Positions 3,269-32,482 are shown, counted from the stretch's first letter. The stretch: 64,000 bases of DNA from Candidatus Marinacidobacterales bacterium (GCA_965237955.1 OZ250169.1:6976001-7040000), one strand, 5' to 3'. A program made the numbers and translations. The notes: generated from the sequence alone by a model not told the origin.

Positions 3269-3270
3269 GC

Positions 3271-4056: not shown

Positions 4057-4067
4057 CTCCGCGGAGC

Positions 4068-5252: not shown

Positions 5253-6663
5253 TGCGTGTTCTATCTTTCCTCACGTATTCGAACTCGAACGGCTTGCCTT
5301 TGACTCCCGATTTCGGCGGGGCGATCCAACTGGCGATCTTGCCGGGCTCGACGACGGGGTGCATCAGGCTCTTGATGAAGGCGTGATCTTCTTCCGAAGG
5401 AAGCCACTCGCCTCGCTTTTGGTTCCACTCGTCCTCCGAGATGAGCTCCCCTTCGGGATTGAAGTGATAATCGCCATACGCGCCAAACTGGCGATGGAAG
5501 CGTCGATGGGGCATCGTCAGACAATCGGAAATGCCGGCCTCTTCGAGAATCTTGTTCCAACGCGTCACGCCCCGTTGGCAGTCTTGGAGGTAGTCATCCC
5601 GCAAGATCTCGTTCATCGCGTTACGCATCGGGATCTCTTCCTTCACGATCTTGGTGTCCTTGACGAGCTCCATCGTGTAGTAGCTGTCGAGACACTTGTG
5701 TTCATCGTAGCTGTCTTCGCGATTGCGGCCCTTCACACCGGTTGCGAAGTACTGCGCTGCGTTCGTCGAGACCTCGCCGCCGAAGAGATCCGTTGATGCG
5801 CTCACCCAGAAGTTCAAATACTTCTGGATCGTGAGAAGATCGATGCCGCCGTGCTCTCGTACGTTGTCGCCGTGCTCCCTCATGAGCTGGGCGGCGCGCT
5901 CGACGATCCGCCCGACACCCGTTTCGCCGACGGACATGTGGAACGCCTCTTCGGTGAGCATGAACTTCGTCGTCCGCGCCAGAGGGTCGAACCCGCTCTC
6001 CGCCAGCGCGAGGAGCTGATATTTGCCGTCGCGATCGGTAAACATCGTGAACATGTAGAAATTCAGCCAGTCGTCGCACGGCTGATTGAACGCGCCGAGA
6101 ATGCGGGGCTTGTCCTGGTCGCCGCTCCGGCGCTGAAGGAGGCCTTCCGCTTCTTCGCGACCATCGCGACCGAAATACGAATGCAGCAGATAGACCATCG
6201 CCCAGAGATGGCGGCCCTCTTCGACATTCACTTGAAAGAGATTCCGCAGATCGTAGTTGCTCGGCGCGGTTTTGCCGAGCTGGCGTTGTTGCTCGACACT
6301 GGCCGGCTCGGTATCACCCTGGGTGACGATGAGCCTCCGGAGCTGGGTGCGCATCTCGCCCGGCACGTCCTGCCACACCGGTTTTCCCTCGTTGTCTCCG
6401 AAGCCGATCTTGGGATCCTCTTCGGCGGGTGCCAGGAAGATTCCCCACCGGTACTCGGGCATTTTCACGTAGTCGTAGTGCGCCCAGCCGCCGGGCTCCA
6501 CCGAGATGGCAGCGCGAAGGTAGATGTCGTCGTTCTGGAATCCGTCGGGCCCCATCTCCATCCACCAGTCGACGTAGTTGGGCTGCCATTTCTCCAAAGC
6601 GCGTTTGAGCTTCGGATCGGCAGACAAGTTCACGTTGTTCGGAATCTTCTCGTGAAGCTCCAT
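5245..6663 (-). CDS. boxB: Benzoyl-CoA 2,3-epoxidase subunit B (diiron)
   Basis: EKIPNNVNL, VTQGDTEPASVEQQR, NVEEGRHLWAM, DRDGKYQL, TEEAFH; GGAGGA RBS before ATG 6663. Confidence 0.95.
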   Translation of the reverse strand: MELHEKIPNNVNLSADPKLKRALEKWQPNYVDWWMEMGPDGFQNDDIYLRAAISVEPGGWAHYDYVKMPEYRWGIFLAPAEEDPKIGFGDNEGKPVWQDVPGEMRTQLRRLIVTQGDTEPASVEQQRQLGKTAPSNYDLRNLFQVNVEEGRHLWAMVYLLHSYFGRDGREEAEGLLQRRSGDQDKPRILGAFNQPCDDWLNFYMFTMFTDRDGKYQLLALAESGFDPLARTTKFMLTEEAFHMSVGETGVGRIVERAAQLMREHGDNVREHGGIDLLTIQKYLNFWVSASTDLFGGEVSTNAAQYFATGVKGRNREDSYDEHKCLDSYYTMELVKDTKIVKEEIPMRNAMNEILRDDYLQDCQRGVTRWNKILEEAGISDCLTMPHRRFHRQFGAYGDYHFNPEGELISEDEWNQKRGEWLPSEEDHAFIKSLMHPVVEPGKIASWIAPPKSGVKGKPFEFEYVRKDRTRND

Positions 6664-6667
6664 GGTC

Positions 6668-8314
6668 TCAGGTCCTCCTCCAGTCGAACTCGGGCATGCT
6701 TTGCTTGCCGTAGAGCGTGAGCGCGCCCTTCTCACCAACCGCGTTGGGGCGCTGAAAAATCCAGTTCTGCCACGCGGTGAGGCGTCCGAAAATCTTGCTC
6801 TCGAGCGTTTCCGGCCCCGCGAACCGAAGCGACGCTTCCATACCGGTCATGGCATCCGGCGAGAAACCGCAGCGCTCTTCGATCGCGATACGCACTTCGT
6901 CGTCCCAATCGAGATCATCGGGAGCGAAGGTGACCAGGCCGAGCTCGAGCGCAGCACTGGCCCAAATGAGTCTGCCGAGGCCGTCGCTCTCGAGCGCTTT
7001 AACCAGCGCTTCGGCGTCACCAAGAAAGCGCGTCGCGAGCCGCGAGAGCCCGTTGGCTTTGGGAAAGCGAACTTTGTTGAGCGGGCCGACCGCGATGTGC
7101 ACCGGGCGGTCGGGATCGTCGAGCATGTAGCTGCGGTCCGCGGCGAGCGCCAGCTCGAGGAGGCTTCCCGCGAAACACGAGCCGGGCTCGATGAGCGCGA
7201 AAATGCTCCGCGCCGTCTGATCGATCCGCTTGAACACGCGGCGCATCTTCAAGAGGATCTCGTTGACCAGCCAATGATCGGCGTGCTTGCTCAACGTCTC
7301 GTCGACGGCGAGCACAGTGTCGCAGCTCCCTTGGGTCTTGATAAGCAGAAGCCCGCACGTCGCCTCGTTGAATCGAAGATGGCAGAGTGCGTCGTCGAGC
7401 TCGCGTGCGACCGCGAGCGGCCAGTAGTCAGAACCCGCGTCACGGATCGCCTCGGGCGTTTGCGGCTGCTCGCCTTCGGGTCCTCGCACCACGATCTCGG
7501 CGCGACGGCTGTCTTCGTCGATGGTGACGGTGACATGTTTATACTCGAGAGACTTATCGGTTCGCTTCGCGTCGAGCGGCTTCAGCTCGATGCCGGGACC
7601 CTTTGCATTCCGCGTCGACGTTTTCGCCAAGGCTTCCGCTCGCTCCTTTACGGCCTCGTCGAAACGGCTGCGCGCGGCCAAGGCGTCGACGAGCTTCCAC
7701 TCGATGGCGCGCTGTCCCTTGATGCCTTCGACGAGCGTCGAGAACACGTCCGCGCGATCGCGGCGCACCATCCTTTTGTCGACGAGACGCGTGAGCCCCC
7801 CCGTTCCCGGAAGCACCGCCAGAAGAGGCGCCTCGGGAAGCGCCACTGCGGCGTTGCCATCGTCCACCAGCAGGATTTCATCGGCGGCGAGTGCCAACTC
7901 GTAGCCTCCGCCCGACGTGATGCCATTCAACGCGGCGAGATATTTCTGACCGCTCTCCTTGCTCGCCTCTTCCATGCCGAGCCGGGTCTCGTTCGTGTAC
8001 TTACAGAAATTGACTTTGAAGTTGTGGGTCGAGCTCGCGAGCATATAGATGTTGGCGCCCGCCGAGAAGATCCGATCCTTGCCACTGGCAATGACGACGG
8101 CTTTCACTTCCGGATGCTCGAAACGCAGTCGCTCGACGGCATCGGCGAGCTCGATATCGACGCTCAAGTCGTAGCTGTTGAGTTTGAGCTGGTAATCCGG
8201 CCGCAGCCCCGCGTCCTCTTGAACATCGAGCGTGAGCGTCGCCACCTGCCCGTCGACTGCGAGCTTGAAGTGCTTGTAGCGGCTCGGATCCGTCTCGAAA
8301 TAAATGGGTTCCAT
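6668..8314 (-). CDS. boxC: 2,3-epoxybenzoyl-CoA dihydrolase (tandem crotonase domains)
   Basis: LKLNSYDL, LRFEHPEV, KVNFCKYTNETR, IFGRLTAWQNWIFQRPNAVG; adjacent to boxB. Confidence 0.93.
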   Translation of the reverse strand: MEPIYFETDPSRYKHFKLAVDGQVATLTLDVQEDAGLRPDYQLKLNSYDLSVDIELADAVERLRFEHPEVKAVVIASGKDRIFSAGANIYMLASSTHNFKVNFCKYTNETRLGMEEASKESGQKYLAALNGITSGGGYELALAADEILLVDDGNAAVALPEAPLLAVLPGTGGLTRLVDKRMVRRDRADVFSTLVEGIKGQRAIEWKLVDALAARSRFDEAVKERAEALAKTSTRNAKGPGIELKPLDAKRTDKSLEYKHVTVTIDEDSRRAEIVVRGPEGEQPQTPEAIRDAGSDYWPLAVARELDDALCHLRFNEATCGLLLIKTQGSCDTVLAVDETLSKHADHWLVNEILLKMRRVFKRIDQTARSIFALIEPGSCFAGSLLELALAADRSYMLDDPDRPVHIAVGPLNKVRFPKANGLSRLATRFLGDAEALVKALESDGLGRLIWASAALELGLVTFAPDDLDWDDEVRIAIEERCGFSPDAMTGMEASLRFAGPETLESKIFGRLTAWQNWIFQRPNAVGEKGALTLYGKQSMPEFDWRRT

Positions 8315-8337
8315 CAAAATACCTCCGTGTCCGTAAC

Positions 8338-8385
8338 ATGCATTATACTACTTGTTATACGATCTAACCATGCAATATAATACAC
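8338..8385. promoter_or_regulatory. Divergent boxC/boxR promoter with two BoxR/BzdR-type operator boxes
   Basis: ATGCATTATACTAC (8338) and ATGCAATATAATAC (8370), 32 bp apart, resemble TGCA-N6-TGCA operators; TATAAT at 8376-8381. Confidence 0.7.
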
Positions 8386-8387
8386 GT

Positions 8388-9125
8388 ATGCGGCCCGAGG
8401 TGTTTCTCAAAGAGCTGGGAAAGCGCGTCCGAGCGGGGCGCCTTCTCAACGGGTTGAGCCAGCGGCGCCTCGCGGAGCTCGCCGGACTGTCCCCCCGCTA
8501 CGTCTCGCAGCTCGAATCGGGTCACGGCAACATCTCCATTGTGCGGCTTTACGAGTTGACCCAGGCGCTCGGTGTCGCGCTCCACGATATGGTACGGGTG
8601 GTACGGCTCGAGGGTCGGCGTCGCATCATAGCGCTCATTGGACTACGCGGGGCGGGAAAGAGCACGGTGGGCAAGAACGTGGCGGAGATGCTCGGGCGTC
8701 CCTTCGTCGAGCTCGACGCACTCATCGAAGAAGAGGCCGGGCTCGGGCTCGCCGAGATTTTCGCCCTGCATGGTGAAAGCTATTACCGCCGCCTCGAGCA
8801 TGACGTCCTCTCGCAGCTCGTCTCCGCCGAGTGCGACGCGGTTCTCGCGACCGGCGGAAGCCTCGCGACCGAGCGCCCGACGTTCGAGCTCTTGAAGGGG
8901 AGCACCGTGACGATTTGGCTCAAAGCCAAACCCGAGCAACACCTCGAACGCGTCGCAGCACAGGGCGATCGCCGTCCCATGGCGGGACGCGCCGATCCGC
9001 TCGCCGAGCTGCGCACGCTCCTCAAAGAGCGCGAGCCACTCTACCGCGAAGCGGAGATCGTCGTCGACACCAGCGCGCTCACCTCGCAACAAGTAGCCGA
9101 CGAGATTCTTCGGAAGATCGCATAG
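8388..9125 (+). CDS. boxR: XRE helix-turn-helix plus shikimate-kinase-like regulator (BoxR/BzdR family)
   Basis: N-terminal HTH (LSQRRLAELAGLSPRYVSQLESG), IALIGLRGAGKST P-loop, QGDRRPM; divergent from boxCB. Confidence 0.9.
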   Translation: MRPEVFLKELGKRVRAGRLLNGLSQRRLAELAGLSPRYVSQLESGHGNISIVRLYELTQALGVALHDMVRVVRLEGRRRIIALIGLRGAGKSTVGKNVAEMLGRPFVELDALIEEEAGLGLAEIFALHGESYYRRLEHDVLSQLVSAECDAVLATGGSLATERPTFELLKGSTVTIWLKAKPEQHLERVAAQGDRRPMAGRADPLAELRTLLKEREPLYREAEIVVDTSALTSQQVADEILRKIA

Positions 9126-12914: not shown

Positions 12915-13084
12915 GCGGCTGCCAGTTCACTACTAGTGTGATCGGAGCGCCCGCGCTAGAGACAACGGTTTTGATCAGAAACCGCTTACTTTGGACAGCG
13001 ACCTTTGATTCAAGCGACCCGACCACCACGAACTCGCCCGCCGAAACCGCTGTGCGGGAGCGCGTTCGAGTTTATTGACCCTAC

Positions 13085-13276
13085 GAGGTAACGCTCGCGG
13101 GCACGGCCGTCTTGGTGGCCGACAACCCCGACATCGCGGGAAACTTCCAGGCCGACGCGGATGAGATTGCCTCGAGCCTCCTCGCCTCTCGTCCGGTGAA
13201 GAAGATTTACCTGAGCGAGCTGGGCGCGGCGGCGACGACGAGCGCCATCTTCGAGGCCTTCGACGAAGGAGCCTCC
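13085..13276 (+). repeat. 192-bp direct repeat, copy 1 (orphan fragment of the C25 domain)
   Basis: Base-for-base identical to 20139-20330. Confidence 0.97.
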
Positions 13277-13320
13277 CAAAAGCGTTGCGGCCGCCAATAC
13301 CAACTGTGGCCCTCTTCCCT

Positions 13321-13452
13321 GTGGGAGGAAATTCCCAGGTTGGGGTATTCGCCCCCCGGTGGCGGTGTGTCGGTTCGTGTAAAGCACCGTAATTGCCTTT
13401 CCTGCAATGACTTGCCGGAGCTCCCTCTGTGCTGTCTGGCATCGCAATTGCA
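13321..13452 (+). promoter_or_regulatory. sigma54 promoter with upstream palindromic enhancer-like sites and an IHF-like site
   Basis: CTGGCATCGCAATTGCA (GG 13438-9, GC 13450-1, N10 spacing); GGAGGAAATTCCCAG and TTGGGGTATTCGCCCC upstream; CAATGACTTG near 13405. Confidence 0.78.
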
Positions 13453-13511
13453 ACGTACTGACCTGCGTGTGCCGTCCCCCGACCAATGGGAGAGATTCGA
13501 CATTGATAGAG

Positions 13512-16500
13512 ATGCAGCGATCGGGGAACTCCAACGCCAGACCGTGCGCCCATGGGCATGGGCTGGCCTCCATGGCATTCGCCGTCGCGGCGCTCGCTGT
13601 GACCTTTGTCTCCTCGGCCGAAGCCCAGACCTTCAGCTTCCGCAAGCAGATCACCGTCGACTTCAATCAAGTTTCGGGGCCGACCAACCATACCGACTTT
13701 CCGGTCCTGATCGACATCACCGGTGACTTGCAGCTCCGCACCGTGGCAAACGGAGGGAACGTCCAGAACGCCAACGGATACGACATCGTCTTTACCGACT
13801 CCAGTGGCACCGAGCTGGATTTCGAGATCGAACGCTACGACGGGTCGAACGGAGACCTTCGTGCCTGGGTACGCGTCCCGACTCTATCCGTCAGCGCCAA
13901 CACGATCCTCCATGTGAACTACGGCGACGCCAGCATCACCACCTCGCAGGAGTCCCCCTGCGGCGTCTTCGACAAGAACTACGTCGGTGCCTGGCACCTC
14001 GAAGAAAGCGGTAGCGGGGTAGCGAACGAATTCAAAGGCAGCTCGAACTACCAGGACCACGGCCAGGGTGGTGAGGGCGATCCTCTTTTCGTCCCGACTC
14101 GTGTCGGTGGAAAGATCGGCTTCGCTCAGGATTTCAATAACCTCGACGGGAAGTACGATTTAATTGACGTCGGAACCTGCCCCCGCCTCGACATCACCGG
14201 TGATCAAATCACCCTCCAAGCCTGGATCAAGCACAACATCGTACCGGCACCTTCCGTGTTCTACGGGATTCTGAATCATAAAGGCTTCAACCAAGGCTAT
14301 CGTATTGTGATTCCACAAAATGTGAACGCGATCCAGTTTCAACTTGGAACCGGCAAAAGCCTAGTCGGCAGCACCGTTACCCCCACAAATAACTGGACCC
14401 ACGTTGTCGCGACTTACGACGGCGCGACGATGAAAATCTATATCGATGGCGTCAAGGATCCGACCGAGCTGGCGACCACAGGCAACATTCCTACCGAATT
14501 TGATAATGCCACCTGGATCGGCCATGGGGACCAACCCAAAGACGTCCCGTGGAGCTACGAGTGGGAGGGTCAGATCGACGAGGTTCGCATCTCCAACATT
14601 GCGCGCGACGCCGGCTGGATCGCCACCGAATACAACAACCAAGAAACCCCTTCTACTTTTTACACGGTTGGCGGCGAAACACCCGGGCCGTTCGCCGTCG
14701 GCACGCTCACCATCAATTACCGCTCTATCGGTGCGAACTCCGGCATCCTCTATAACAGTGGCGACGCTCAGCTCCCCATCGGAACAACGGTGGTGGCCTT
14801 CGGAGGAGTTGCTGACTTGCCCACCACTATCGGGAGGGGCGATGAGCTCATTCTGAACCCGGGCGCCGGCCCGCTCGAAGAGACGCTCTACATCCTATCC
14901 CGCGACACCGCTACCCAGGTGAGGGTTCAGACGGCCGCGACGATAAACCACGTCCCACCGGTCCCCTACGAGATCCGGCGCGCCCACAACGTGCTCCAAA
15001 CTTGGGAAGACAACAGCGATGGCGACCTGGTGGGGCAGAACCGTCGCGAGGTGGGCATCCGTCTACGACGACGGACCTCTCCTTGCCGCCGCGTCGCCTA
15101 TGCTCCAGATCGAAGACTCCACCACCGACTGCACGCGCTACATGCACCTCACCGTGGCCCAGGGACACGGGCATTACGGCATCGAAGGAACCGGCGTTTA
15201 TCTGGACGGCGGCGGTAACACCAAGTTCGGCATTCGCATCCAGGACGACTACACCCGCGTCGATGGGCTGGAGTTACGACGCTTCCACGATCCCACCTCT
15301 GGAGGCGCAAGCGCTGTCCTCATGCAGAACGCGGACAATGTCCTCATCGAGCGTCTGCTGATTCACAATTTCTTCGAGCCCGCCCAAAGCGCTTACGGCA
15401 TCCGCGCCTCGACAACAGGCTCATCCACATCGGAGATCCGCAACACCATCATCCATAGCGGTGACCAGGCCGGGATCCAACTAAACGACCCCGATTCCTC
15501 GATGATTGTCGACAACTGCACGATCTATGGAATGGACTTCTTCGGTGTGAACGGTGCTTCCGGGAGCTTGGCGGTGCGGAACACCATCGCCATGGGTACC
15601 ACCGTCAACGACGATTTTGGTGGCACTCTGAAACAAGAGTACAACATGTCCGAGGACCTCACCGCCGCGGGCACCGGCTCCTTGACGGGCATGATTCCTG
15701 CCAACCAGTTCGTCTCCACGGCAGGACCCCTCGAGGATCTGCACTTGAAAGACAGCGCCGCCGATGCCGTGGACGCCGGAGCGGATTACTGCCGGCACTA
15801 CTCGCACGACATAGACCTTGAGTCGCGGTTCGGACTAACTTGGGACATCGGGGCCGATGAGTACTCGTCATCCGTTTTCTACCGTTCGATAGGTACCGCC
15901 ACCGATTACTCGGATGGAGACGTCGACGTTGTCAACGGCTCTCCCAACGTCATCGGCAACGGCACGCTCTGGAAGACCAATAATCGGGGGCGGGGCGACC
16001 TGTTCACGGTCAACGGGACGAACTACACCATCCTTTCCGTGGACTCGGAGACACAGCTCACACTCACCGCTCCGGTGACCGATCCCTCTGCCAACTATCC
16101 CGCCTACACCATTGCTCGGAAGTTCAAGGGTGCGGACCCTGTCCGAGATTGGGAGAAGTGCGTCGACGGCTCGGTCGTTGTCCTTCCCCAGTGTCACGAC
16201 GTGTCTAGCAACAGCCTCATTGCCGACAATCGCTCGGAATTCGGAATCCTCTACGACGATTCGACGTTTACTCTCACCAATAACTTGCTGATTCAAGGCT
16301 CCATCACCGACGCACAGCATACGATCACCTTGACCGACGACGACGGAAACCGCCACTACGGAATCGCGGGGGATGGAGTGGTGATCAACAACACCGACAC
16401 CGCAGATGCGATTCGTGCCTTGGACAATTACATCACCATCGAGTGGATCGAGCTGACGGGCGGCGGAGCCTCGGCGAGCGGCATCGAAGTCGACCCGCTT

Positions 16501-17523
16501 AATGCCACAAATAAGGTGATCCTCCGAAACAACCTCATTCACGATACACCGGGAGACGGTTTTCAGCTTCTCGATCCCAACCTAAATGTTGACGTCTACA
16601 ACAACATCATCTACAGGACTCGCAGAGGCATTCGCATCAGTGATCCCATCAACGGGCAGATCTTCAATAACACGTTATACGACAACAGCCATACGACGGA
16701 ACCGAGCGGCATCAACGGTGACCCGGTAAGTGCACCGTTTCCCAACGTGATCCTTCGCAACAACATCGTCCACTCGAACAACAACGCCGATATCGACGTG
16801 TCCGGCTTGAGCTCCGCGAGCAGCCACAACTTCACTAGCGACGGCACTGGAACCACGCACAGCCCGGCCGGTTTTGGCATGAACAGCGTGCCGCTTTCGG
16901 GCGCCGGTGGGATGAACTTCGTGGACGACGCCCTACCGGTCCTCGACCTTCACATTAAGAGCACCAGCGTGGCGAAGGACAAAGCCACCAACCTGAGTAC
17001 GGTATTCAAGTACGACATCGACGGAGGAGGACAGCAATCCCTCTGGGACATCGGTGCCGATGACCTCGCTGCCACCACCGCGGTGGAGCTGGTAGCTTTC
17101 GAAGGCCTCGGGCTCGATGGTGCGGTAGAGCTTCGGTGGGAGACGGCCTCCGAGCTGAACAATTTGGGTTTTCATCTCTACCGGGCGAGCTCCGAAGATG
17201 GCCCGTTCGAGCGCATCACGGCGAACGCGATTCCTGGACTGGGCAGCTCCCCGGTCGGAGCGCGCTATAGCTACCGTGACACGAACGTCGTCAACGGTGT
17301 GACGTACTTCTACGAGCTCGAAGACATCGAGACGACGGGGAAGACCGAGCTTCACGGGCCGGTCTCGGCGACGCCGGGGGCAGGAGCGCCAGAGGGAGAA
17401 GAGAGCGGGGCGGAAGGTGAAGCGGAGGAGCTTCCAGAGGAGACCGCCCGGATCGAGTATGGCGATCCTTCCGCCAATGGCTGGCGTGTGTTGAAGCAAG
17501 GCCGCCGGCAGGTAATTCATTGA
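13512..17523 (+). pseudogene. 5' part of a giant secreted protein (DUF2341, LamG, two beta-helix modules, TAVEL/Ig-like domain); frameshift near 15060; cut by IS200
   Basis: Signal peptide (..VSSAEA-Q); DUF2341-like FRKQITVD..DFPVL..YDIVFTD..EIERYD..AWVRVP; LamG WTHVVATYDG..YIDG..GQIDEVRIS; module YRSIG...DLHxK...WDIGAD present twice; TTAVELVAF..LRWETASELNNLGFHLYR. Confidence 0.8.
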
Positions 17524-18170
17524 GGTAAACCCCCGGCTCTGCCGGGGTGACTCCCAGAGGTTTGACCGTGTAAGGAAGTAGGAAAGAAAGTCCTCCTTGG
17601 AAAGCGCGAACTTCCAAACAAGGAGGACTACCAAGGTGAAAGAATACAAGAGCCTATCCCACACACGATGGGACTGCAAATATCACGTTGTGTTCATCCC
17701 GAAGTACCGAAGGAAGAAGATGTATGGTGCAATCAGAACGCATCTGGGAAAGATTCTCCACGAGCTGGCGAAACAAAAAGAGGCCTGGATTCTGGAGGGC
17801 CACTTGATGTCGGACCACGTCCACATGTGCATCAGCATCCCACCGAAGTTTGCGGGTGTCGAACGTGGTGGGGTTCATCAAAGGCAAGAGTGCGATCTCG
17901 GTGGCACGGAACTTCCGCGGACGCAGACGCAACTTCACCGGCGAAAGCTTCTGGGCACGCGGTTACTTCGTGTCGACCGTAGGCTTGGACGAAGAGATGG
18001 TCCGCAAGTACATTCCAAGATCAGGAGGACCAACGTCTGGACCAGCTGAATATGGACTGGTCGGGCTCGTAGTTGGGGAGCAAGATCGCCCCCTTTAGGG
18101 GGCTCATGGACAGCCCCTTCGAGGGGCTCTTATGAATAGGCCCCCGGCTTTGCCGGGGGTCACTTTAACT
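17518..18170 (+). mobile_element. IS200/IS605-family insertion sequence (tnpA only, ~650 bp)
   Basis: Subterminal hairpins CCCCGGC-TCT-GCCGGGG (17531-17547) and CCCCCGGC-TTT-GCCGGGGG (18141-18159); no target duplication; host frame reads ..RQVI | LE.KTKGFY.. across it. Confidence 0.92.
17636..18072 (+). CDS. tnpA: Y1 HUH transposase, with frameshifts near 17856 and 18016
   Basis: AGGAGG RBS; CKYHVVFIPKYR, DHVHM (HUH), VVGFIKGKSAI, FWARGYFVSTVG, RKYI (catalytic Tyr). Confidence 0.93.
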
Positions 18171-20738
18171 TTGGAGTCAAGACCAAGGGCTTCTACGCGA
18201 TACCGCAAGAAGACGGTACGGTGCGGCTCGAGATTCCGGGCTTTGTGGAGGCGGCCGAAGCGGGCCTGCCTTCGGTTCCTGTCAAGCGAGCCTGGGTGAA
18301 GGCGGTGGCGGGGCGAGACGTCCGCATCGCTTCGGTGCGTCCGAGCGACGTGGTGGCGTTTTCCTCGTTGAGACCTTCCGCTGCGGAGGCTCCGGAGGTG
18401 ATTGCAGACCAGTCGGGAGTGGTTCAGGCGGGCCGACGGCGGCAGAGATGGTTGAGGACACTCTTCCGTGGGGATGGCTTGTACCCCGAGGAGACGGCGC
18501 ATGTGGTGAGTGTGGCCTTTCAGGGCGAGGTGAAAAAGGCTCTGATGGAGCTGGCGCCCCTGCGCTGGGACCCTGGCTCGGGACAGCTTCTTCTAGCGCG
18601 GCGTCTGGTGGTGCGGCTTACGTTTGCCGGCCGCGTGCCGGATGAGCTCGGGCAGGGCGGCTCGCGGGGCCACCACCACAGGGAGCGCGGCCAGCCATCG
18701 AACTCGAGCCAATGTGGTAGTAGTGCGGTTTCTGGCGCGGGAGAAGGGAGTGTACGGGGTGAGGTTTGAGGACGTGTTCGGCTCGCGCCGGCGTGGGGTG
18801 CGGGTGTCCTCGCTGCGATTGAGCCGTCTCGGAGAGCCGGTGGGCTTCCACGTGGAGCCCGACAAGGGCCCGTTCGGCCCCGGCTCGACGCTGTACTTCG
18901 CGAGCGACGGCGCATCCTTGAATCCTTACGGGGACGCGGCGGTGTACGAGCTGGAGCGCGCGCGCGGCGGGGTGTTGATGCCGCTCGAGGAGGCATCGGC
19001 ATCGGGGACGGCGACGGAGTTTTACTGGCATCGAGCGGAGTGGGAGGAGAATCGTATTTACCAGGCCGCGATCTTGGATGCGCCCGACCTATGGACGTGG
19101 GACGCGCTTCTCGCTCCGGTGCTGAAGAGCTATCCGGTGGACGTGGACCAGCTCGCCCCCACCACCGAAGCGGCGCTTCTTACGCTGTGGCTGCAAGGGG
19201 TGAGCGACTTCGACGCCTCGCCGGACCACCATGTGCGGGTGTACCTCAATGGAAGCCAGGTGGCCGAGGAGTGGTGGGACGGCGGCAAGCCTTTGAAGGT
19301 GGCCGCCGAGCTCGCACCGGGGCTTTTGGTCGAGGGAGCCAATGAGCTTTCGATTGAGAACGTGGGGGAGACCGAGGCTGCTTACTCGTTCGTGCTTCTC
19401 GACCGCTATGCGGTGAGCTATCCACGGATGGCGGTGGCGGAACAAGGCTATTTGGAGGGGAGCTGGAGCACGTCGGGAGTGGCGGAGGTCTCCGCTCTTA
19501 GTGGCAAAGCGTACGTGGTGGACGTGACGGAAGAGCCGCCGCGCTGGTTGACGGGGGTCGAGCTCCTGGACGCAGAGCGGGCTCGCTTCGGGGTCCGAGC
19601 CGATCGGAGCTACCGGGTGGTGAGCGCGGAGGCGGCTTTGTCTCCGCAAGTGCTCAAACCTCTTCGCAGTCGCTTGAAGAGCAAGCGGAACCGGGCGGAC
19701 TACCTGGTCATCAGGCCGCAGGCGCTGCTCGCAGCAGCCAAACCTTTGCTCGAGCTCCGGCGCAGCCAGGGACTACGGACGAAGGCAGTCTCCATGGAAG
19801 AGATCTACTCGGAGTTTGGCTTCGGGGAGACGCGTCCGGAAGCGGTGAAGGAGTTCCTGTCCTACGCCTACCACCACTGGCGCTCGCCCTCGGTTCTCTA
19901 CGTGCTCTTGCTGGGCGATGCGACGTACGACTACAAAGACTACCTGGGCACCGGAGTCGCGAACCAAGTGCCGCCGCTCATGATGAAGACCACGTACATG
20001 TGGACCGCCTCCGACCCGGCGTACGCCGCGGTGAATGGGGACGATATTCTTCCCGACCTGGCCATCGGTCGTCTGCCGGCGGCCAATGTGGAAGAGGTGG
20101 AGCGATTGGTGGCGAAGATCCTGGCCTACGAGACGGGGGAGGTAACGCTCGCGGGCACGGCCGTCTTGGTGGCCGACAACCCCGACATCGCGGGAAACTT
20201 CCAGGCCGACGCGGATGAGATTGCCTCGAGCCTCCTCGCCTCTCGTCCGGTGAAGAAGATTTACCTGAGCGAGCTGGGCGCGGCGGCGACGACGAGCGCC
20301 ATCTTCGAGGCCTTCGACGAAGGAGCCTCCTTGGTGAGCTATGTGGGCCACGGAGGTATTGCCATATGGGCGTCGGAGAATCTCTTCAATATCTTCAATG
20401 TCAGCTCCCTGGCTCCGCAGTCACAGCAGCCGATCGTGCTGACCATGAACTGCCTGAACGGCTACTTCATCTTCCCCTACTTCAACTCGCTGTCGGAAGA
20501 GCTCCTGAAGGCGGAGGGCAAAGGTGCCATCGCGGCCTTTTCTCCAAGCGGCCTCAGCGTGAACGGGCCGGCGCATCTCTTCCACAAGGCACTGCTCAGC
20601 GAGCTGTCCAGCGACAGGCACGAGCGTCTCGGCGACGCGGTGCTGGCAGCTCAGACGACCTATGCGGACCGCGGCGCCTTCGTGGAGCTTCTGAGCATTT
20701 ATCACCTGCTCGGAGATCCTGCTCTGACGCTTCGGTAA
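18171..20738 (+). pseudogene. 3' part of the giant protein: propeptide-like region plus C25 (gingipain/PorU-like) cysteine peptidase; frameshifts near 18177 and 18690
   Basis: ADYLVI, IYSEFGFG, YVLLLGDATYDYKD, PDLAIGRLP, SYVGHG (His), MNCLNG (Cys), YHLLGDPAL. Confidence 0.88.
20139..20330 (+). repeat. 192-bp direct repeat, copy 2 (inside the C25 coding region)
   Basis: Identical to 13085-13276. Confidence 0.97.
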
Positions 20739-20739
20739 G

Positions 20740-20891
20740 GGAGCCGAGTCGTTCACGACACTTCCCGCGGGCGCCTCCCAGCGAACGGTTGGTTCGACGA
20801 AGGCGAAGTCGGCGGTCAGCTCCATGTCGCGGTCTTCGTCAGAGCCCGTCAACCATTTCGTGATCACATCGTTCTCGAAATGACTTGCCAT
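20740..20891 (-). pseudogene. Truncated DUF1353-like gene (N-terminal ~50 codons only)
   Basis: MASHFENDVITKWL..DRDMELTADFAFVEPTVRWEAPAGSVVND resembles DUF1353 N-termini; the similarity ends where the C25 gene ends. Confidence 0.55.
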
Positions 20892-20955
20892 AGACTCCCC
20901 CGTTAGCCGCGCGTTCGACATCGCCAAACTTACCCCTGATACTAAGTGAAAAGCG

Positions 20956-22165: not shown

Positions 22166-23029
22166 TCAAGAAATCTGGTTTGCGGCGTGGTAGGAGCTTC
22201 GCACTAGTGGACCCGCCTCCACGTGGCGGAAGCCGATCGCACGGCCTCTATCTGCCAGCTCACGGAACTCGTCGGGATGAACGAAACGCTCTACCCGCAG
22301 GTGCTCTTTCGTCGGCTGCAGGTACTGGCCGATGGTGAACACGTCGACACCGGCGTCGTCGACGAGCTCGCGCATGACCGCTTCAACTTCGTCGAGGCTT
22401 TCGCCGAGCCCAAGCATGATGCCCGTCTTGCTGACGATGTCGTTTCTGATTTCCTTCACCCGCCTCAAGAGCTCGACCGATTGCGCAAAACTCGCTCCCG
22501 GGCGGACGTGCCGGTAGAGCCTGGGCACGGTCTCGATGTTGTGGTTCAAAATTTCGGGCCGCGCGCCCAAGACGGTCTGGAGTGAGGCGCGTGAGCCCTT
22601 GAAGTCGGGAATCAACACTTCGATCCTCGTATCCGGCATGCGCTCTCGTACGGCTTCGATCGTTCTCGCGAACATCACCGCTCCGCCGTCGGGAAGCTCG
22701 TCCCGATTCACCGATGTGATGACGGCGTGGGTCAAACCCATGGCCTCGACCGCATCGGCGACACGCCGCGGCTCGTCCTGATCGAGAACCTGTGGAAGCC
22801 CGGTCTTGACGGCGCAGAACCCGCACGATCGCGTGCACACGTCGCCCAGGATCATGAACGTCGCCGTCCCCTGTCCCCAACACTCGGCGACGTTCGGGCA
22901 TCGCGCCTCTTCACACACGGTGTGCAGGCCCTTGTCCCGCATGATGCCCTTCAGGCGAAAGTAGTCGTCGCCGGTGGGAAGGCGTACTTTCAGCCAATCG
23001 GGTCGCGGGGAGCGCGTCATCGTCGCCAT
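22166..23029 (-). CDS. lipA: Lipoyl synthase
   Basis: CEEARCPNVAEC, CTRSCGFC, RSSYHA. Confidence 0.97.
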   Translation of the reverse strand: MATMTRSPRPDWLKVRLPTGDDYFRLKGIMRDKGLHTVCEEARCPNVAECWGQGTATFMILGDVCTRSCGFCAVKTGLPQVLDQDEPRRVADAVEAMGLTHAVITSVNRDELPDGGAVMFARTIEAVRERMPDTRIEVLIPDFKGSRASLQTVLGARPEILNHNIETVPRLYRHVRPGASFAQSVELLRRVKEIRNDIVSKTGIMLGLGESLDEVEAVMRELVDDAGVDVFTIGQYLQPTKEHLRVERFVHPDEFRELADRGRAIGFRHVEAGPLVRSSYHAANQIS

Positions 23030-23041
23030 GGATGTAGCCTA

Positions 23042-24367
23042 CTACAAGATCTTCTCGTCCCAGTCCTCGAGCCGCTGCTTCAAATCGGCCATGAACTGAT
23101 CGGCGAGTGCACCGTCGATGAGCCGGTGATCGAACGACAGCGCGAGGTACACCATGGAGCGCACCCCGATGCCGTCGTTGACGACGACCGGCCGCTTGTG
23201 AATCCCGCCGAGAGCGAGGATCGCAACTTGCGGTTGGTTGATGATGGGCGTTCCGAAGAGTCCGCCGAACACACCGGGGTTCGTGATCGTGAACGTTCCG
23301 CCTTGAACGTCGGCGGGCATCAACTTCTTCGTGCGCGCACGCTCGCCGATGTCGTTGACGGCACGAGCGAGGCCGAGAAAGCTTTTCTCGTCCGCATGGT
23401 GGATGACGGGAACGATGAGCCCGCCGTCGAGCGCGACCGCGATGCCGAGGTTTTTGTCCTTGTGGTAGACGATGGAGTCGCCGTCGATCGATGCATTGAA
23501 AATCGGAAACGCTTTCAGCGACGACAAAACCGCGTGCACGAAGAAAGGTGTATAGGTGAGCTTGACGCCGTCCCGTTGAAAAGCGGCCTTGTACTCGGCT
23601 CGCTGGGCGACGATGCGGCTCACGTCGGCTTCGAACACGGTGGTGACATGCGCCGAGGTCTGCTGCGACACCACCATGTGCTCCGCGATGGACTTCCGCA
23701 TCTTGCTCATGGGCTCGACGTGGACACGTGATTCGTGCGCGGACGCCGGCGCGGCAGGCGGAGGCGATGCTGCCGGCGGCCCAGATTGAGGAGCGGCGGG
23801 CGGCGCGGGAGGTGCCGGTGTCGGGACAACCCCCATAGGCGCCGCTGGCGGGGCGGGTGGAGCCTCGACAAACTTCAAAACGTCTTGCTTGGTGACGCGC
23901 CCACCGCGTCCGGTGCCCGTCAGACGAGAGAGGTCGATGCCGTGCTCGCGCGCCATCTTGCGCACTAGCGGCGAGCTGCGGAGGCCCGGTTGGGGATGTT
24001 GGGCCGGTTGAGGACGTTCGGGATGTTCCGGGGGCGAAGTATCAGTCCGAGGCTCCGGGGCAGCACCCGGTGGCGACGACGACCGAGCAGGGGTTGGCGG
24101 CGACGGAGGAGAAGGAGTGGTCGCCTCTTTGACTTCCCCACCGATGACTCCGATGACGGTATTAATGGGAACGGTCTCGCCTTCCTGCACTTTGATCTCG
24201 GACAACACCCCGGACGTCGGCGCGGGGATCTCCGTGTCCACTTTGTCGGTGGAAATCTCGAGGAGCGGCTCGTCACGCTCGACGGTATCGCCTACTTTCT
24301 TGAACCATTTGGTGACCGTTCCCTCGGCGATGCTCTCACCCATTTGCGGCATGATCACGTCAGTCAT
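23042..24367 (-). CDS. 2-oxoacid dehydrogenase E2 (dihydrolipoamide acyltransferase)
   Basis: Lipoyl domain STDKVD, peripheral subunit-binding SPLVRKMA, catalytic FDHRLIDG. Confidence 0.95.
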   Translation of the reverse strand: MTDVIMPQMGESIAEGTVTKWFKKVGDTVERDEPLLEISTDKVDTEIPAPTSGVLSEIKVQEGETVPINTVIGVIGGEVKEATTPSPPSPPTPARSSSPPGAAPEPRTDTSPPEHPERPQPAQHPQPGLRSSPLVRKMAREHGIDLSRLTGTGRGGRVTKQDVLKFVEAPPAPPAAPMGVVPTPAPPAPPAAPQSGPPAASPPPAAPASAHESRVHVEPMSKMRKSIAEHMVVSQQTSAHVTTVFEADVSRIVAQRAEYKAAFQRDGVKLTYTPFFVHAVLSSLKAFPIFNASIDGDSIVYHKDKNLGIAVALDGGLIVPVIHHADEKSFLGLARAVNDIGERARTKKLMPADVQGGTFTITNPGVFGGLFGTPIINQPQVAILALGGIHKRPVVVNDGIGVRSMVYLALSFDHRLIDGALADQFMADLKQRLEDWDEKIL

Positions 24368-24397
24368 GAAACCGTCTTCCTTCTTCTAGATCCCCAT

Positions 24398-25381
24398 TCA
24401 ATACGCGTGGAGCGTCCGCGCTGCTCGCACCACGTCCTCGGGTTGGGGGATGAACGCATCTTCCAGTGATGCAGCATAAGGGACCGGAGTGTCGGGCGCG
24501 GTCACGCGCACGATGGGCCCGTCCAAATCGTCGAAAGCTTCTTCGGCGATGATTGCCGCGACCTCGCCCGCCATACCGCCGGTACGCGTGTCTTCGTGGA
24601 GGAGCATCACTTTGTTCACTCGGCGCACGGCGTCGAGAATACACTCTTGATCGAGCGGTACGAGACTTCGCAGATCGATGACCTCGAGCTCGATACCTTC
24701 GCCCGCCAACGTCTCCGCGGCCTCGAGCGCCGTGTACAACATCGCGCCATAGGTGATGAGCACGATGTGCTTCCCGCGCCGTTTCACCGCGGCCTTCCCG
24801 ATGGGCACGATGTCGTCTGCGGCGGCGAGCTCGGACTCGGGCACTTTGATATGCCGATAGAGCTTCTTGTGCTCGAGATAGAGCACCGGGTCTTCGTCGC
24901 GGATCGCGGCTTTCATGAGACCGCGCGCGTCGGCAACCGTCGCCGGGGTCACCACTTTGATGCCTGGCGTGTGGACGAAGTGCATTTCGGGATTCTGCGA
25001 ATGGAACGGGCCCGCTCGAACCCCGCCTCCCGACGGCCCTCGCAGAACGATGGGAACGCCGGCGCCCCAGCGGTAGCGGCTCTTCGCGGCGAAGTTCGTG
25101 ATCATGTTGAACGCGTTCGCGATGAAATCGATGAACTGGAACTCGACGATCGGGCGGAGCCCGTTGAAAGCGGCGCCGATGGCGACGCCGGTGTACCCCT
25201 CCTCGCTGATGGGGGTATCGATGACGCGCTCGGGACCGAACTGTTCGAGAAACCCCGCGGTGACTTTGAACGCGCCGCCGTAGAGGCCGATGTCTTCGCC
25301 GAGGAGCACGATGTTCTTGTCACGCTCCATCTCGTCCCACATCGCTTGGCGTATGGCTTCGAGGTAGGTGATTTCGGACAT
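24398..25381 (-). CDS. 2-oxoacid dehydrogenase E1 beta subunit
   Basis: GEDIG, DTPISE, EFQFIDF, GPFHSQ, IDLRSLVPLD. Confidence 0.95.
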   Translation of the reverse strand: MSEITYLEAIRQAMWDEMERDKNIVLLGEDIGLYGGAFKVTAGFLEQFGPERVIDTPISEEGYTGVAIGAAFNGLRPIVEFQFIDFIANAFNMITNFAAKSRYRWGAGVPIVLRGPSGGGVRAGPFHSQNPEMHFVHTPGIKVVTPATVADARGLMKAAIRDEDPVLYLEHKKLYRHIKVPESELAAADDIVPIGKAAVKRRGKHIVLITYGAMLYTALEAAETLAGEGIELEVIDLRSLVPLDQECILDAVRRVNKVMLLHEDTRTGGMAGEVAAIIAEEAFDDLDGPIVRVTAPDTPVPYAASLEDAFIPQPEDVVRAARTLHAY

Positions 25382-25409
25382 ATCGTGCTCGGGCTCTAGT
25401 ATTAGCTGG

Positions 25410-26390
25410 TTAGAGCGGTGCGTAGAGACCTTCCTCGAGTCGTTCGACGTCTGCGGGCGCCGCACCGTCGGCAGCACGCAACGCATCGGATACGGATTCT
25501 TCGGCGCGCGCGACGAGTGTCGAGCGGTCGGCCTCCGAAAGCCAGTCTTGCTGGAGTAGAAACTTCTCGAACCGCCACGCGGGATCGTTGTCGACGTCCT
25601 TCGCTTCTTCGCCACCGTCGGAGTCGAGCCGTCCCACATCCCCGAACGGCGCGGGCACCGCGCTCTCGTTTCCGAAATAGCGCCGCGAGCTTCGTAACAC
25701 CGCTTCGATCAACGTCGGACCATCGCCAGCCTGGGCACGAGCCATCGCGGTCTCCACGACTTGGACCACTTGCAGCAAATCGCTTCCGTCCACGGGAAGC
25801 GAAGCGAGCCCGTAGCCTTTGGCGCGTTCGTAGAGCTGCGCGACTTCGGAGCCTTCGCCCGACGCGGGGTAGCGGACGACGATGATGATGAGCGGGCACT
25901 TCGAAACAGCCGCGAAGTTGACGCCTTCGTGGAAGTCTCCGGTCGCGACCGCCTCTTCGGGCACGAGCGCGAGCGCGACGCGCTCTTGGTTCTGCACGCG
26001 GTAAGCGAAGGCCATACCCGCCATGACGCTCACGTGCGTCGCCGTGTGGCCGGTGGTCGCCACGAGACCGCGGGACAGATCGCCAAAGTAGCGAAGCCCT
26101 TCGCGGCCCCTGCTCGGTCCTGCCTCCTTGCCGAGAAACTGCAGCACGATCTCTTCCGGCTTGACGCCTCTGAGCAACAACGCCCCGACGGTCGGAAGCG
26201 ACGATGCGAGCGCGTCTTTGGGAGTCGGCACGAACGATGCGCCCACACTGATGGCCTCGAGGCCGGTGCGAAGCCCGAGCGGCGTCGTGAGCTCGTTTTC
26301 GCGATGGAGCCGAACGAGAGCTTCTTCGAGCCGCCGGGTGAGCACCATGTAGTACAGGAGCTCTTGAAGCTGGCGTTTACCCAAACGCAT
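25410..26390 (-). CDS. E1 alpha-like subunit with a degenerate ThDP-binding motif
   Basis: E1a fold by sequence (GLEAISVG, GDFHEGVNFAAV, VDGSD, GPTLIEA) and operon position. Confidence 0.85.
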   Translation of the reverse strand: MRLGKRQLQELLYYMVLTRRLEEALVRLHRENELTTPLGLRTGLEAISVGASFVPTPKDALASSLPTVGALLLRGVKPEEIVLQFLGKEAGPSRGREGLRYFGDLSRGLVATTGHTATHVSVMAGMAFAYRVQNQERVALALVPEEAVATGDFHEGVNFAAVSKCPLIIIVVRYPASGEGSEVAQLYERAKGYGLASLPVDGSDLLQVVQVVETAMARAQAGDGPTLIEAVLRSSRRYFGNESAVPAPFGDVGRLDSDGGEEAKDVDNDPAWRFEKFLLQQDWLSEADRSTLVARAEESVSDALRAADGAAPADVERLEEGLYAPL

Positions 26391-27073
26391 TAGCGCGCGA
26401 ACACCTCGAGATCGGCTTCGTGGGCCTCTCTGACGTCTCGGTCGAAGATACGCGCAAAGGCGCTTGAGGCGGCGTCTCTGACCGGACCACGCGCAACCGG
26501 TTCTTCTAGAAGATTTTCCATGGAACTTACTGTGCGCCCGAAGATACCACAGGGAACGATGTGTTTGAAATATTCGAGATCGGTAGCGACGTTGAGCGCA
26601 AAGCCGTGGGACGTGACCCAGCGCGAGACGCGAACGCCAATGGCGGCGAGTTTGCCACGTGGGTGCCAAACACCTGTCAGTCCCTCCTCGCGCGTCGCTT
26701 GGATATCGAACTCGCGGACGGCGTCGATGAGAAGCGCTTCGAGCGCTCGAAGATATTCGTGGACATCCGTCTTCCACGACTTCAGGTCGACGATGGGATA
26801 TCCGACGAGCTGGCCGGGGCCGTGGAACGTGACGTCACCACCGCGGTCGGTTTCGATCACCGAAGCCTCGAGTTTGTCCAGGGTTGCCGCGTCGACGAGG
26901 AGATGTTCCCGCCGCGCGCTCCGACCCAACGTGTACGTCGGAGGGTGCTCGACGAAAACGAGGACGTCGGGTACGCGCCCCTCCTGCCGGGCGGCGACGA
27001 GACGTCTTTGGAGCGCGAGCGCTTCCTCGTAGCCGCGGCGGCCGAGATCGACTTGCCAGCAGGGCTCAGACAT
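26390..27073 (-). CDS. lipB: Octanoyltransferase
   Basis: EHPPTYTLG, RGGDVTFHGPGQLVGYP, KLAAIG, HGFALN, IVPCG. Confidence 0.95.
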   Translation of the reverse strand: MSEPCWQVDLGRRGYEEALALQRRLVAARQEGRVPDVLVFVEHPPTYTLGRSARREHLLVDAATLDKLEASVIETDRGGDVTFHGPGQLVGYPIVDLKSWKTDVHEYLRALEALLIDAVREFDIQATREEGLTGVWHPRGKLAAIGVRVSRWVTSHGFALNVATDLEYFKHIVPCGIFGRTVSSMENLLEEPVARGPVRDAASSAFARIFDRDVREAHEADLEVFAR

Positions 27074-28487
27074 GGAGCGGCAGCTCGTATGCCCCGTGCG
27101 CCGCTTCGGCAACGGCTTCGGAAAGAGTGGGGTGCGCGTGCACCGCATGCATCAGAGATTCGGCGGTGGCCTCGTGCTCGAGCGCCACGACCGCTTCGGC
27201 GATGAGATCGGTGGCGTGAGGTCCGATGATGTGGACGCCGAGAAGCTCTCCGTATTTCGATTCGCTCACGACTTTCACGAAGCCCTCGTTGTCGCCGAGG
27301 ATGGTGGCTTTCGGGCTCGCCGCGAAGGGGAACTTGCCGACCTTGACCTCGTAGCCTTTGTCGTTGGCGCTCTCAATGGCGGCGGCTTCGGTTAGACCGA
27401 CGCTCGCGACTTCGGGCGTGCAATACGTGGCGCCCGGCATGTGCAGGTAGTTCAAAGGCTCAACCGAACGACCCGCAATACGCTCGACGGCGAGGATACC
27501 TTCGGCCGATGCCACATGAGCGAGCTGTTGCGTCGCGACGATGTCGCCGATGGCATAGATTCCTTTCGCCGTCGTCTCCATGAACTCGTCGACGACGACG
27601 TTGCCTCGCTCGAGCTTGGCCCCGACTTGTTCGAGACCGATGTTCTCGGTGCGTGCCTTCCTCCCGACAGCGACGAGGAGCTTGGTCACGTTGCGTGTGT
27701 CCTTCGTGCCATCGGGGCGTGTGAACTGGACGTCGACACCCGAGCCGTCGCTCGCCACATTTACGCCATCGACTCTCGTTTCCGTCAACGTCTCGATGCC
27801 GCGCTTCGTGAACGATTTGTAGAGCTCATCGGAGATTTCCTCGTCTTCGACGGGCACGACTCTCGGCAAGACCTCGATGACGACGACTTTCGTGCCGAAG
27901 CTATGGAACATGGAGGCGAACTCGACGCCGACGGCGCCAGCGCCGATGACGCCGATGCTCTCCGGCTGCGCTGGCAGCGCGAGCATCTCGGTGTTGGACA
28001 CGACCGTCTGACCGTCCATAGGAACGTTTGGTATGGACCTCGGCTCGGAGCCGGTCGCCACGATAATGTTCGTGGCGGCGACGGTCTTCACACCCTCTTC
28101 CGTCTGGACTTCCAGTTTCCCCGCTCCCGCGATCCGTCCGAAGCCTGTGAGCGTCTCGACGTTGTTCTTTCGGAAGAGGTACGCCACGCCGCCGGCGTTT
28201 TTCTTGATGATCCGGTTCTTCCGCTTCATCAACGCGGGCCAGTCGAGCCGAAGTCCCTCCACGATGACACCCTGGTCGCCCGCCCGCCGTAACCGATCCA
28301 GGAGCTCCGCCGTGTAGAGGAAGACTTTGCTCGGAATGCACCCGACGTGAAGGCATGTGCCGCCGAAATACGGGTCTTTCTCGACCACGAGGGTCTTCAG
28401 GCCCAGTTGCCCGGCGCGGATCGCGGCGACGTAGCCACCGGGGCCGCTTCCGAGAATCGCAACGTCGTAGCCTGTCTCGTTCGCCAT
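27066..28487 (-). CDS. lpdA: Dihydrolipoamide dehydrogenase (E3)
   Basis: GSGPGG, GGTCLHVGCIPSK, HAHPTLSE. Confidence 0.97.
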   Translation of the reverse strand: MANETGYDVAILGSGPGGYVAAIRAGQLGLKTLVVEKDPYFGGTCLHVGCIPSKVFLYTAELLDRLRRAGDQGVIVEGLRLDWPALMKRKNRIIKKNAGGVAYLFRKNNVETLTGFGRIAGAGKLEVQTEEGVKTVAATNIIVATGSEPRSIPNVPMDGQTVVSNTEMLALPAQPESIGVIGAGAVGVEFASMFHSFGTKVVVIEVLPRVVPVEDEEISDELYKSFTKRGIETLTETRVDGVNVASDGSGVDVQFTRPDGTKDTRNVTKLLVAVGRKARTENIGLEQVGAKLERGNVVVDEFMETTAKGIYAIGDIVATQQLAHVASAEGILAVERIAGRSVEPLNYLHMPGATYCTPEVASVGLTEAAAIESANDKGYEVKVGKFPFAASPKATILGDNEGFVKVVSESKYGELLGVHIIGPHATDLIAEAVVALEHEATAESLMHAVHAHPTLSEAVAEAAHGAYELPLHV

Positions 28488-32329: not shown

Positions 32330-32482
32330 TCAGTTCACTTAGCGCCTTGCCGGCATCGACGTCGTACAAATCAACTCCAACGTGCTGGTAAAGAGGCTAG
32401 CCTCGTTACCGGCGATACCTTATAGGCTCGGCACCACTTTGGCGAACGGCACAACGCGAATTGGACTGGATGCTGAATGCTG
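32317..32482. repeat. Repeat-armed cassette, copy A
   Basis: 21-bp heptamer-built inverted arms (32317-32337 / 32462-32482) around a cargo homologous to 41185-41306. Confidence 0.85.

Follow-up and report, generated by a model that had tools for sequence, protein, structure and literature searches.

The DNA analyzed here is a 64,000-nt stretch of a Candidatus Marinacidobacterales bacterium (GCA_965237955.1, OZ250169.1:6976001-7040000; hereafter, the window). On its plus strand, positions 13512–20738 encode, over four frames, a leader, DUF2341 and LamG domains, two beta-helix modules and a domain opening at a TTAVEL motif (TAVEL), followed by propeptide-like and middle domains and a C25-family peptidase. 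The locus raises the question of whether a peptidase placed at the end of such a chain cuts the chain that carries it. The initial annotation had proposed as much, reading the gene as variable passengers grafted onto a conserved cassette that cleaves or anchors them in cis. According to our analysis, cargo is swapped at the T-A-V residues across at least seven passenger types, and we lean towards a model in which variable N-terminal cargo is followed by a tag and a PorU-type peptidase that would cut itself off in cis at Thr|Ala-Val. The window copy itself is a pseudogene, and the intact relatives carry most of the argument.

Exchange of passengers ahead of a conserved C25 cassette

The pieces of the window gene total about 2186 codons, close to the roughly 2200 residues first estimated after removal of an insertion sequence (IS) and repair of the frames. 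An intact homologue of 2179 residues, P0159, is collinear with it end to end, at 33–57% identity by piece. The window lies on one contig (C1) of 8.13 Mb. The best named relatives of the window genome (G000) are Candidatus Marinacidobacterales and Vicinamibacteria (Acidobacteriota). In this genome, one cassette type stands behind DUF2341-LamG-beta-helices, DUF2341-LamG with a propeller, a delta-60-like propeller and an unnamed repeat region (domain names of the paralogue passengers were assigned by eye). The same beta-helix module also occurs with a fibronectin type III (Fn3)-like domain and a propeller replacing the C25 cassette (G000:C1:2091067-2095545 and 5031594-5034297). TAVEL matches were found in 25 of 41 related genomes, including that of the window, with up to 18 per genome, and one family had none (0 of 14). 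In one genome, G025, six genes stand in tandem, their open frames reaching up to 6188 residues.

Among the database homologues, 107 of 118 could be parsed and gave seven named junction classes and 20 others. Their junction consensus is T-x-V-x-L, with T in 105, A in 87, V in 107 and L in 105 of the 107 sequences. Outside Chloroflexota, 31 of 72 loci have a single open frame from TAVEL to the end of C25 and 27 are broken; a further 12 are cut by a contig end with pieces of the cassette visible, and two stop too early to show any. Cassette pieces are thus present behind TAVEL in 70 of the 72, the other two stopping at a contig end. The peptidase changes little, whether its passenger has a few hundred residues or more than 5000.

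A quick tree of the 28 intact cassettes that remained after a stricter filter required 17 changes of genome label, against a mean of 22.5 in shuffled labels (none of 300 shuffles was as low), and 15 changes of passenger label against 16.0 (29% as low). The cassette phylogeny tracks the genome, not the passenger. Paralogues, parsed junctions and tree together show that passengers vary on a cassette that is conserved, the breakpoint lying at TAVEL, and the comparison of paralogues proposed in the initial annotation returned the expected shared C-termini, unrelated N-termini and break at TAVEL. One homologue, P0019, shares 95% identity with the window in the propeptide and 72% in TAVEL and has a different passenger, indicating that recent crossovers can also fall within the cassette. 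New cargo would be acquired when recombination falls within a homologous cassette or immediately before it, often in tandem arrays.

Codon style follows the same boundary. The proportion C/(C+G) at four-fold sites is 0.63–0.67 ahead of TAVEL and 0.32–0.44 behind it (Mantel-Haenszel odds ratio 3.0, chi2 63, z ~7.9), against a maximum |z| of 3.9 in a control of 254 long open reading frames (ORFs) of the window genome split in halves. The shift is gradual over the second beta-helix, has the same direction in all nine homologous ORFs (seven with z>2) and is weak in the paralogues of the window genome, where only short stretches were usable. It is a family trait that marks the cassette. The shift reported initially therefore stands, but the two modules of different origin deduced from it do not, since a family-wide shift says nothing of different origin at this locus; for the same reason, its use as a date of the graft was ruled out.

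A giant open frame exceeding 6000 residues (L016:1815-20003) carries ordinary Fn3 repeats, with no cassette in the part examined. A divergent second subfamily (L017:4362-12254 and L018:4186-10314) shares about 36% identity in C25 and has a TAVEL-like domain without the T-A-V motif, and can serve as a naturally occurring control for the proposed cleavage.

The PorU-like enzyme and its predicted substrate

The catalytic His and Cys (GHG and NC) occur in every one of the 50 aligned rows and align to the dyad of both RgpB and PorU, confirming the intact dyad read from the window. Profile comparison gave E values of 7.5e-23 for PorU and 1.5e-21 for RgpB. An AlphaFold model of the intact cassette of homologue P0007 (mean predicted local distance difference test, pLDDT, 80) had PorU (6za2) as its best Foldseek match (E 1e-28, 778 columns, TM 0.38, root-mean-square deviation (rmsd) 10.4), followed by RgpB, Kgp and their prodomains. 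The PorU model NF033707 scored 195 bits on the window and 153–206 on intact homologues, against a cut-off of 420, and the PorU2 model NF052324 scored 127 on the window against 450. The positions of NF033707 covered, 104–732, show that the catalytic domain is preceded by N-terminal and middle domains of the PorU type. The PorU-like character proposed for the peptidase was thus upheld by the type of its middle domain and by the structural match. Judged by sequence, the enzyme is PorU-like but not a member of PorU: it scores below the cut-off and has neither Arg722 nor a type IX secretion system (T9SS) C-terminal domain (CTD). The propeptide-like domain reached 20.4 bits with PF08126 (cut-off 22), a profile E value of 0.002 with the Kgp prodomain (5mun) and Foldseek TM values of 0.56–0.59 with prodomains. 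The column aligned with the S1 residue of RgpB, an Asp that we take to give Arg/Lys specificity, holds Asp in 34 and Asn in 11 of 50 rows, by sequence alignment only.

The search for T9SS genes suggested by the initial annotation gave nothing over the cut-off for SprA, PorP, GldN or PorV. SprA gave no match in the window genome or in any of the 19 family genomes searched, and PorP and GldN gave none in the window genome, with control genomes giving no signal for any of the three. The best PorV match scored 62.7 bits, under a cut-off of 90; a PorV-like, full-length barrel gene (G000:C1:4790686-4791615) lies between genes for 3-deoxy-D-manno-octulosonic acid (Kdo)/lipopolysaccharide (LPS) and for type IV pili. 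The TIGR04183 CTD model matched neither the window pieces nor six homologues, and four weak CTD matches elsewhere in the genome scored 22–30 bits against a cut-off of 23. Two secretins are present. The T9SS is likely absent, yet this is unproven, since the SprA, PorP and GldN controls gave no signal.

TAVEL was modeled as an Fn3-like sandwich (AlphaFold pLDDT 92) and matched the structure 3mpc (Z 10.7, rmsd 2.6, 90 aligned residues); a Foldseek comparison gave E 8e-5. In the model, the T-A-V residues directly precede the first beta-strand. A profile search with TAVEL returned 50,816 matches, mostly generic Fn3 repeats and without taxa, and an Atlas search with the tag gave unnamed clusters and one 0.86 lead to CTD-bearing proteins. 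The kinship of TAVEL to a domain ahead of T9SS tails, noted at the outset, was borne out, for example by P0125.

The accessible text of PMC4560394 describes PorU cleavage as X/(GSA)(VLI), e.g., T/ATEQ and D/SVED. The available part of PMC11969387 places the cut in a coil that separates folded domains, ahead of the sorting domain, and gives, for Prevotella, a hydrophobic, most conserved residue at +2 and a tolerant +1. The T|AV junction fits this published consensus for PorU. We also predicted a complex of TAVEL (residues 62–172) with the middle and catalytic domains (417–1090) of P0007, folded as two chains. It scored 0.86 against 0.01 for the best of three controls, on a mark that 116 of 157 solved pairs attained, as did 2 of 215 mismatched ones, a calibration that is only rough for a user alignment. 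The runs agreed in at least 90% of contacts, with a partner pLDDT of at least 85. The confident interface has two patches, one of them on the middle domain, where it comprises an invariant loop, GLGSSP, and ETTG (P0007 residues 531–536 and 579–582). The other brings residues 69–74 of the partner (DGTTAV) to enzyme residues 962–967 and 995–997, including His962 and Cys996. The predicted complex supports binding of TAVEL to the enzyme. Interface conservation is weak as extra support, being 0.79 against 0.79 in TAVEL and 0.74 against 0.65 in the middle domain.

A split form of the same parts was found in Anaerolineae, six loci of which surfaced in the genome scan. In genome G042, 13 of 14 examined TAVEL domains (of 18 matches) are C-terminal on unrelated secreted proteins; behind each of the 13 come a second, bare motif and then a hydrophobic helix, and 12 have a basic end. 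The remaining TAVEL is internal and adjoins a C25 gene. The bare motif is a copy of the first TAVEL strand in which V, L/V and F are kept and the first two residues vary. Tails in a second genome, G043, are mostly short or of the Tyr/Phe-Leu-Pro-Leu type common to its C25 proteins. There are five C25 matches in G042 and six in G043, four of which adjoin TAVEL genes, and none in G041. NCBIfam sorting-signal models matched neither four Anaerolineae proteins nor P0155. From its sequence layout, the G042 tail is a candidate for an undescribed CTERM signal, and the C25 enzymes are candidate sortases. Parts that are fused in one lineage and separate but neighboring in another suggest a functional pair.

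The G042 signal as a whole (L093, L096, L097, L110-L138) reads TAVEL, then (T/S)-A-V-x-L-x-x-F as the second, bare motif, then the hydrophobic helix, and ends in a basic tail. At G064:C4:4145-6553, in the Anaerolineae family, TAVEL and C25 apparently lie in one frame of 2915 residues, so that the fused form may occur there as well.

In the model that we lean towards, the protein would be exported through its signal peptide, and the gingipain-like propeptide would keep the enzyme latent until displaced or removed. TAVEL would then fold back and dock on the middle domain through the GLGSSP and ETTG loops, laying TTAV in the His/Cys cleft. Attack of the Cys after Thr would give a thioester of cargo and enzyme, to be resolved either by an amine acceptor of the envelope, as in PorU, or by water, with release of the cargo. 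If cleavage does occur, ligation to an acceptor, and hence anchoring, would by analogy be roughly an even call. In-cis cleavage, as first proposed, gains support from the predicted complex and from the Anaerolineae split form, and fails for the copy in which it was proposed, which is a pseudogene. A wider reading is tentative: TAVEL and PorU-type C25 could form an undescribed, T9SS-free sorting system, acting in trans in Chloroflexota and as a cis, single-use sortase in Marinacidobacterales-type Acidobacteriota, with envelope ligation at Thr|Ala-Val.

Several observations weigh against self-cleavage or against the strength of its support. The position of PorU Arg722, 32 residues past the catalytic Cys, is Gly in 48 of 50 rows; this Arg was proposed for sortase activity in the accessible text of PMC4560394. 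In 14 of 107 junctions, Glu takes the position behind Thr. The complex was folded without the propeptide and from a single paired alignment derived from one polypeptide, and the contact of T-A with Cys is inferred from residue lists, because the best listed pairs are all on the middle domain. In the single-chain model, residues 1–73 are not confidently placed. TAVEL-like domains occur in tandem (P0122, P0130 and P0161), ahead of a T9SS tail with Pro replacing Ala (P0125) and ahead of a MYXO-CTERM-like tail, so labeled by eye (P0140); the fold can therefore be a plain spacer. Co-occurrence in the Anaerolineae family is uninformative, since each part is near universal there (39 of 41). No conserved partner gene, save further family members, follows the cassette within about 3 kb in 47 loci. 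Nor was an outer-membrane route identified for the family proteins; with no acceptor found and no T9SS core part over the cut-off, the surface display originally proposed was not supported.

The same enzyme could instead be a targeted secreted protease like RgpA or Kgp, with a passenger that binds a surface or glycan and a TAVEL spacer, digesting outside substrates. Propeptide plus C25 is the gingipain layout, and RgpB scores close to PorU in the profile comparison; the frequent Asp aligned with S1, the missing Arg722 and the tandem TAVEL-like domains, which could be spacers, point the same way. We nevertheless regard it as unlikely: the T and V ahead of the fold are 98–100% conserved, which linkers are not, the predicted complex has motif and catalytic residues in one interface, and the middle domain is PorU-type. 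TAVEL is also a terminal tag on unrelated Anaerolineae proteins, and the peptidase varies little whatever the length of the passenger.

Processing could also be intermolecular, the peptidases cutting the TAVEL of their neighbors, with strand swap perhaps building chains or sheaths by analogy with gingipain-processed type V pili. Tandem arrays of at least six genes would suit such an arrangement, as would the bare first-strand copy that Anaerolineae proteins tether to a membrane helix and the folding of the complex as two chains. The new Ala-Val end would resemble the peptides starting with (G/S)(V/L/I) to which, in the accessible text of PMC4560394, PorU can ligate cargo. Every assessable Acidobacteriota TAVEL (70 of 72) has its own cassette, however, a redundancy if the enzymes acted in trans, and no polymer-specific feature was found; we hold this alternative to be quite improbable. 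That the fusion is an artefact of assembly or annotation, passenger and peptidase being separate genes, might be suspected from the four interruptions in the window and the 27 broken loci among the 72 related ones. This notion has next to no probability and is already refuted by intact homologues: 31 of these loci run in a single open frame from TAVEL to the end of C25, P0159 is intact and collinear, and independent contigs reproduce the window sequence.

Anatomy, decay and surroundings of the window copy

The features of the window gene and of its upstream flank are listed in Table 1. Pfam matches bear out the DUF2341, LamG and paired beta-helix assignments of the initial annotation. A WDIGAD motif, choice-of-anchor Q-like, closes each beta-helix module; in homologues, the NF041518 matches on this motif are weak, at or under the cut-off. 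The frame stop at 20738 marks the end of the catalytic domain, and no C-terminal sorting domain follows.

Table 1. Positions of the gene parts and associated elements within the window.
Feature	Position	Strand	Basis or remark
Insertion sequence end, integrase-core transposase type, remnant	13005..13084	-	87% matches at G000 1421.9 kb and 4228.6 kb
192-nt exact direct repeat	13085..13276 = 20139-20330	+	100%, spacing 7054; copy of the gene's own C25 part
Signal-peptide-like leader and start codon	13512..13625	+	Hydrophobic stretch ending Ala-Glu-Ala, read by eye; similar leaders in intact homologues
Passenger part 1: DUF2341 and LamG (concanavalin A-like)	13626..14700	+	PF10102 E 1e-9, PF13385 E 8e-22
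Passenger part 2: two beta-helix modules	14701..17067	+	PF13229, E 4.5e-19
TTAVEL motif	17074..17091	+	Thr|Ala bond predicted to be cut, at 17079/17080
TAVEL domain, fibronectin type III-like fold	17077..17385	+	AlphaFold and structure matches
Acidic linker and beginning of propeptide-like domain	17386..17517	+	Alignment to intact homologues
IS200/IS605-family element	17518..18170	+	Y1_Tnp
Remaining propeptide-like domain and basic linker	18171..18700	+	Propeptide_C25 20.4 bits, cut-off 22
PorU-like middle domain, predicted TAVEL docking surface	18701..19700	+	NF033707 positions 104-732 (homologues); 778-column match to 6za2
C25 catalytic domain	19701..20738	+	PF01364 267 bits (cut-off 23); His 20349-20351, Cys 20451-20453

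Translated alignment to intact homologues located frame changes near 15059, at ~18176 (at the IS) and near 18700. The IS200 transposase is itself split over two frames, broken near 17854 (Y1_Tnp E 3e-18 and 1.5e-11). This element, which also matched PF01797, has seven near-identical copies in the genome, counting that of the window, and all follow TAAT, in keeping with the fixed target sequence, without duplication, of IS200/IS605 elements. Sequencing error was ruled out as the cause of the frame breaks, as contigs from public runs reproduce them: those at 15059 and 18700 are each spanned by gap-free contigs of runs X1, X2 and X3, and that at 18176 by a gap-free contig in run X1, which is possibly the source sample. 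The window copy is a true, inactivated pseudogene and as such cannot work. All seven TAVEL-bearing loci of this genome are broken by IS elements, frameshifts or truncation, and orphan 3' fragments of C25 lie at 931, 1421, 4481 and 8098 kb.

Run X2 shows an IS-free, in-frame joint of 17517 to 18177, possibly from a second cassette copy. To take it for the intact allele of this locus would be unsafe, since X2 carries two cassette alleles at 18187–18439 (with 0 and 18 differences). A 210-nt deletion allele (20470–20681), close behind the catalytic Cys, is present in runs X2, X5 and X6 and is a sign of continued decay in related strains. In another X2 contig, the first beta-helix module runs at its end into TAVEL (15860–17071); this contig may represent a one-module variant or another paralogue.

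Contigs of X1 and X2 start or stop 30 nt within the 192-nt repeat and continue in unique sequence, which is how a true repeat should behave. Its upstream copy, beside the IS end, is likely a rearrangement scar left by duplication and then IS-adjacent deletion; both genomic matches of the IS remnant adjoin a transposase-like ORF. The spacing of the two repeats takes in most of the gene, and recombination between them could excise or amplify this segment. In three of nine loci of relatives, no cassette gene separates serA from the methyltransferase gene downstream, the two being direct neighbors, and low-depth contigs connect 12918 to 20954; the window gene is therefore an insertion at this site. 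Two lines of inquiry were set aside: only two small-share runs were labeled sponge metagenome, and one of them, the RNA run X22, covers the IS only, so that it supports neither a sponge habitat nor expression of the gene.

Elsewhere in the window, genes named by eye include a cluster like the benzoyl-CoA (box) pathway that includes a regulator carrying a fused shikimate-kinase-like domain (2126–9125), ordinary genes for lipoate synthesis and 2-oxoacid dehydrogenase (22166–28487), and several clustered Ser/Thr kinase and GAF-like ORFs (32406–38071).

Relation to known sorting and processing systems

To our knowledge, PorU chemistry is known only within the type IX system of Bacteroidota, where it needs PorV, PorZ and anionic LPS. 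No description of the present family was found in a full-text literature search, which covered few subscription papers. The present work contributes the prediction of docking, the argument for the cut site, the test on the cassette tree and a direct connection with the tail of Anaerolineae. If the model is true, PorU chemistry would extend to other phyla, a candidate enzyme would be named for the as yet unassigned Chloroflexota C-terminal tag, and a self-cleaving or self-ligating protein tag might become possible; this value rests with the intact relatives, the window copy being inactive.

The Anaerolineae TAVEL tails share the motif-helix-basic design of LPXTG, PEP-CTERM, GlyGly-CTERM and MYXO-CTERM signals; sortase signals are described as motif, hydrophobic helix and basic cluster, with many per genome, in the accessible part of bioRxiv 10.1101/2023.06.07.544157. 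They differ from these tripartite signals in that the candidate enzyme is a C25 peptidase, and in the window family there is no membrane tail and the enzyme is in cis. The clan CD autoprocessing domains of surface proteins and polymorphic toxins belong to the same clan, and self-release of the attached domain has been proposed for them (PMC3482391, in its available text). In the window family, by contrast, the variable part is N-terminal and adhesin-like and the peptidase is the last domain, and, unlike in polymorphic toxins, no immunity-like or recurrent gene lies downstream in the 47 loci.

With the gingipains RgpB, RgpA and Kgp (1cvr, 4ief, 5mun), the family shares a propeptide-like domain before C25 and an aligned dyad. 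RgpA and Kgp also carry adhesin domains. The window family differs in its N-terminal and highly variable passengers, in an extra middle domain between propeptide and catalytic domain, and in having no immunoglobulin superfamily/CTD tail.

Overall, the closest counterpart is PorU (PG0026; 6za2; NF033707), which shares the C25 His/Cys dyad and the middle domain, is the best match in sequence and fold, and has a cleavage consensus that the candidate T|AV site would fit; background on the attachment complex is given in the accessible text of PMC11285876. The window genome differs in having no SprA, PorP or GldN match and only a PorV-like gene under the cut-off. The window family also has an Fn3-like tag rather than a T9SS CTD, Gly at the Arg722 position and no tail of the PorU kind, which we take to consist of C-terminal immunoglobulin domains and a T9SS CTD. 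Finally, where PorU stands apart from its substrates, the window family has cargo, tag and enzyme in one chain, in many paralogues per genome, and this one-chain version, if true, would offer a minimal, testable model of substrate recognition by a C25 sortase.

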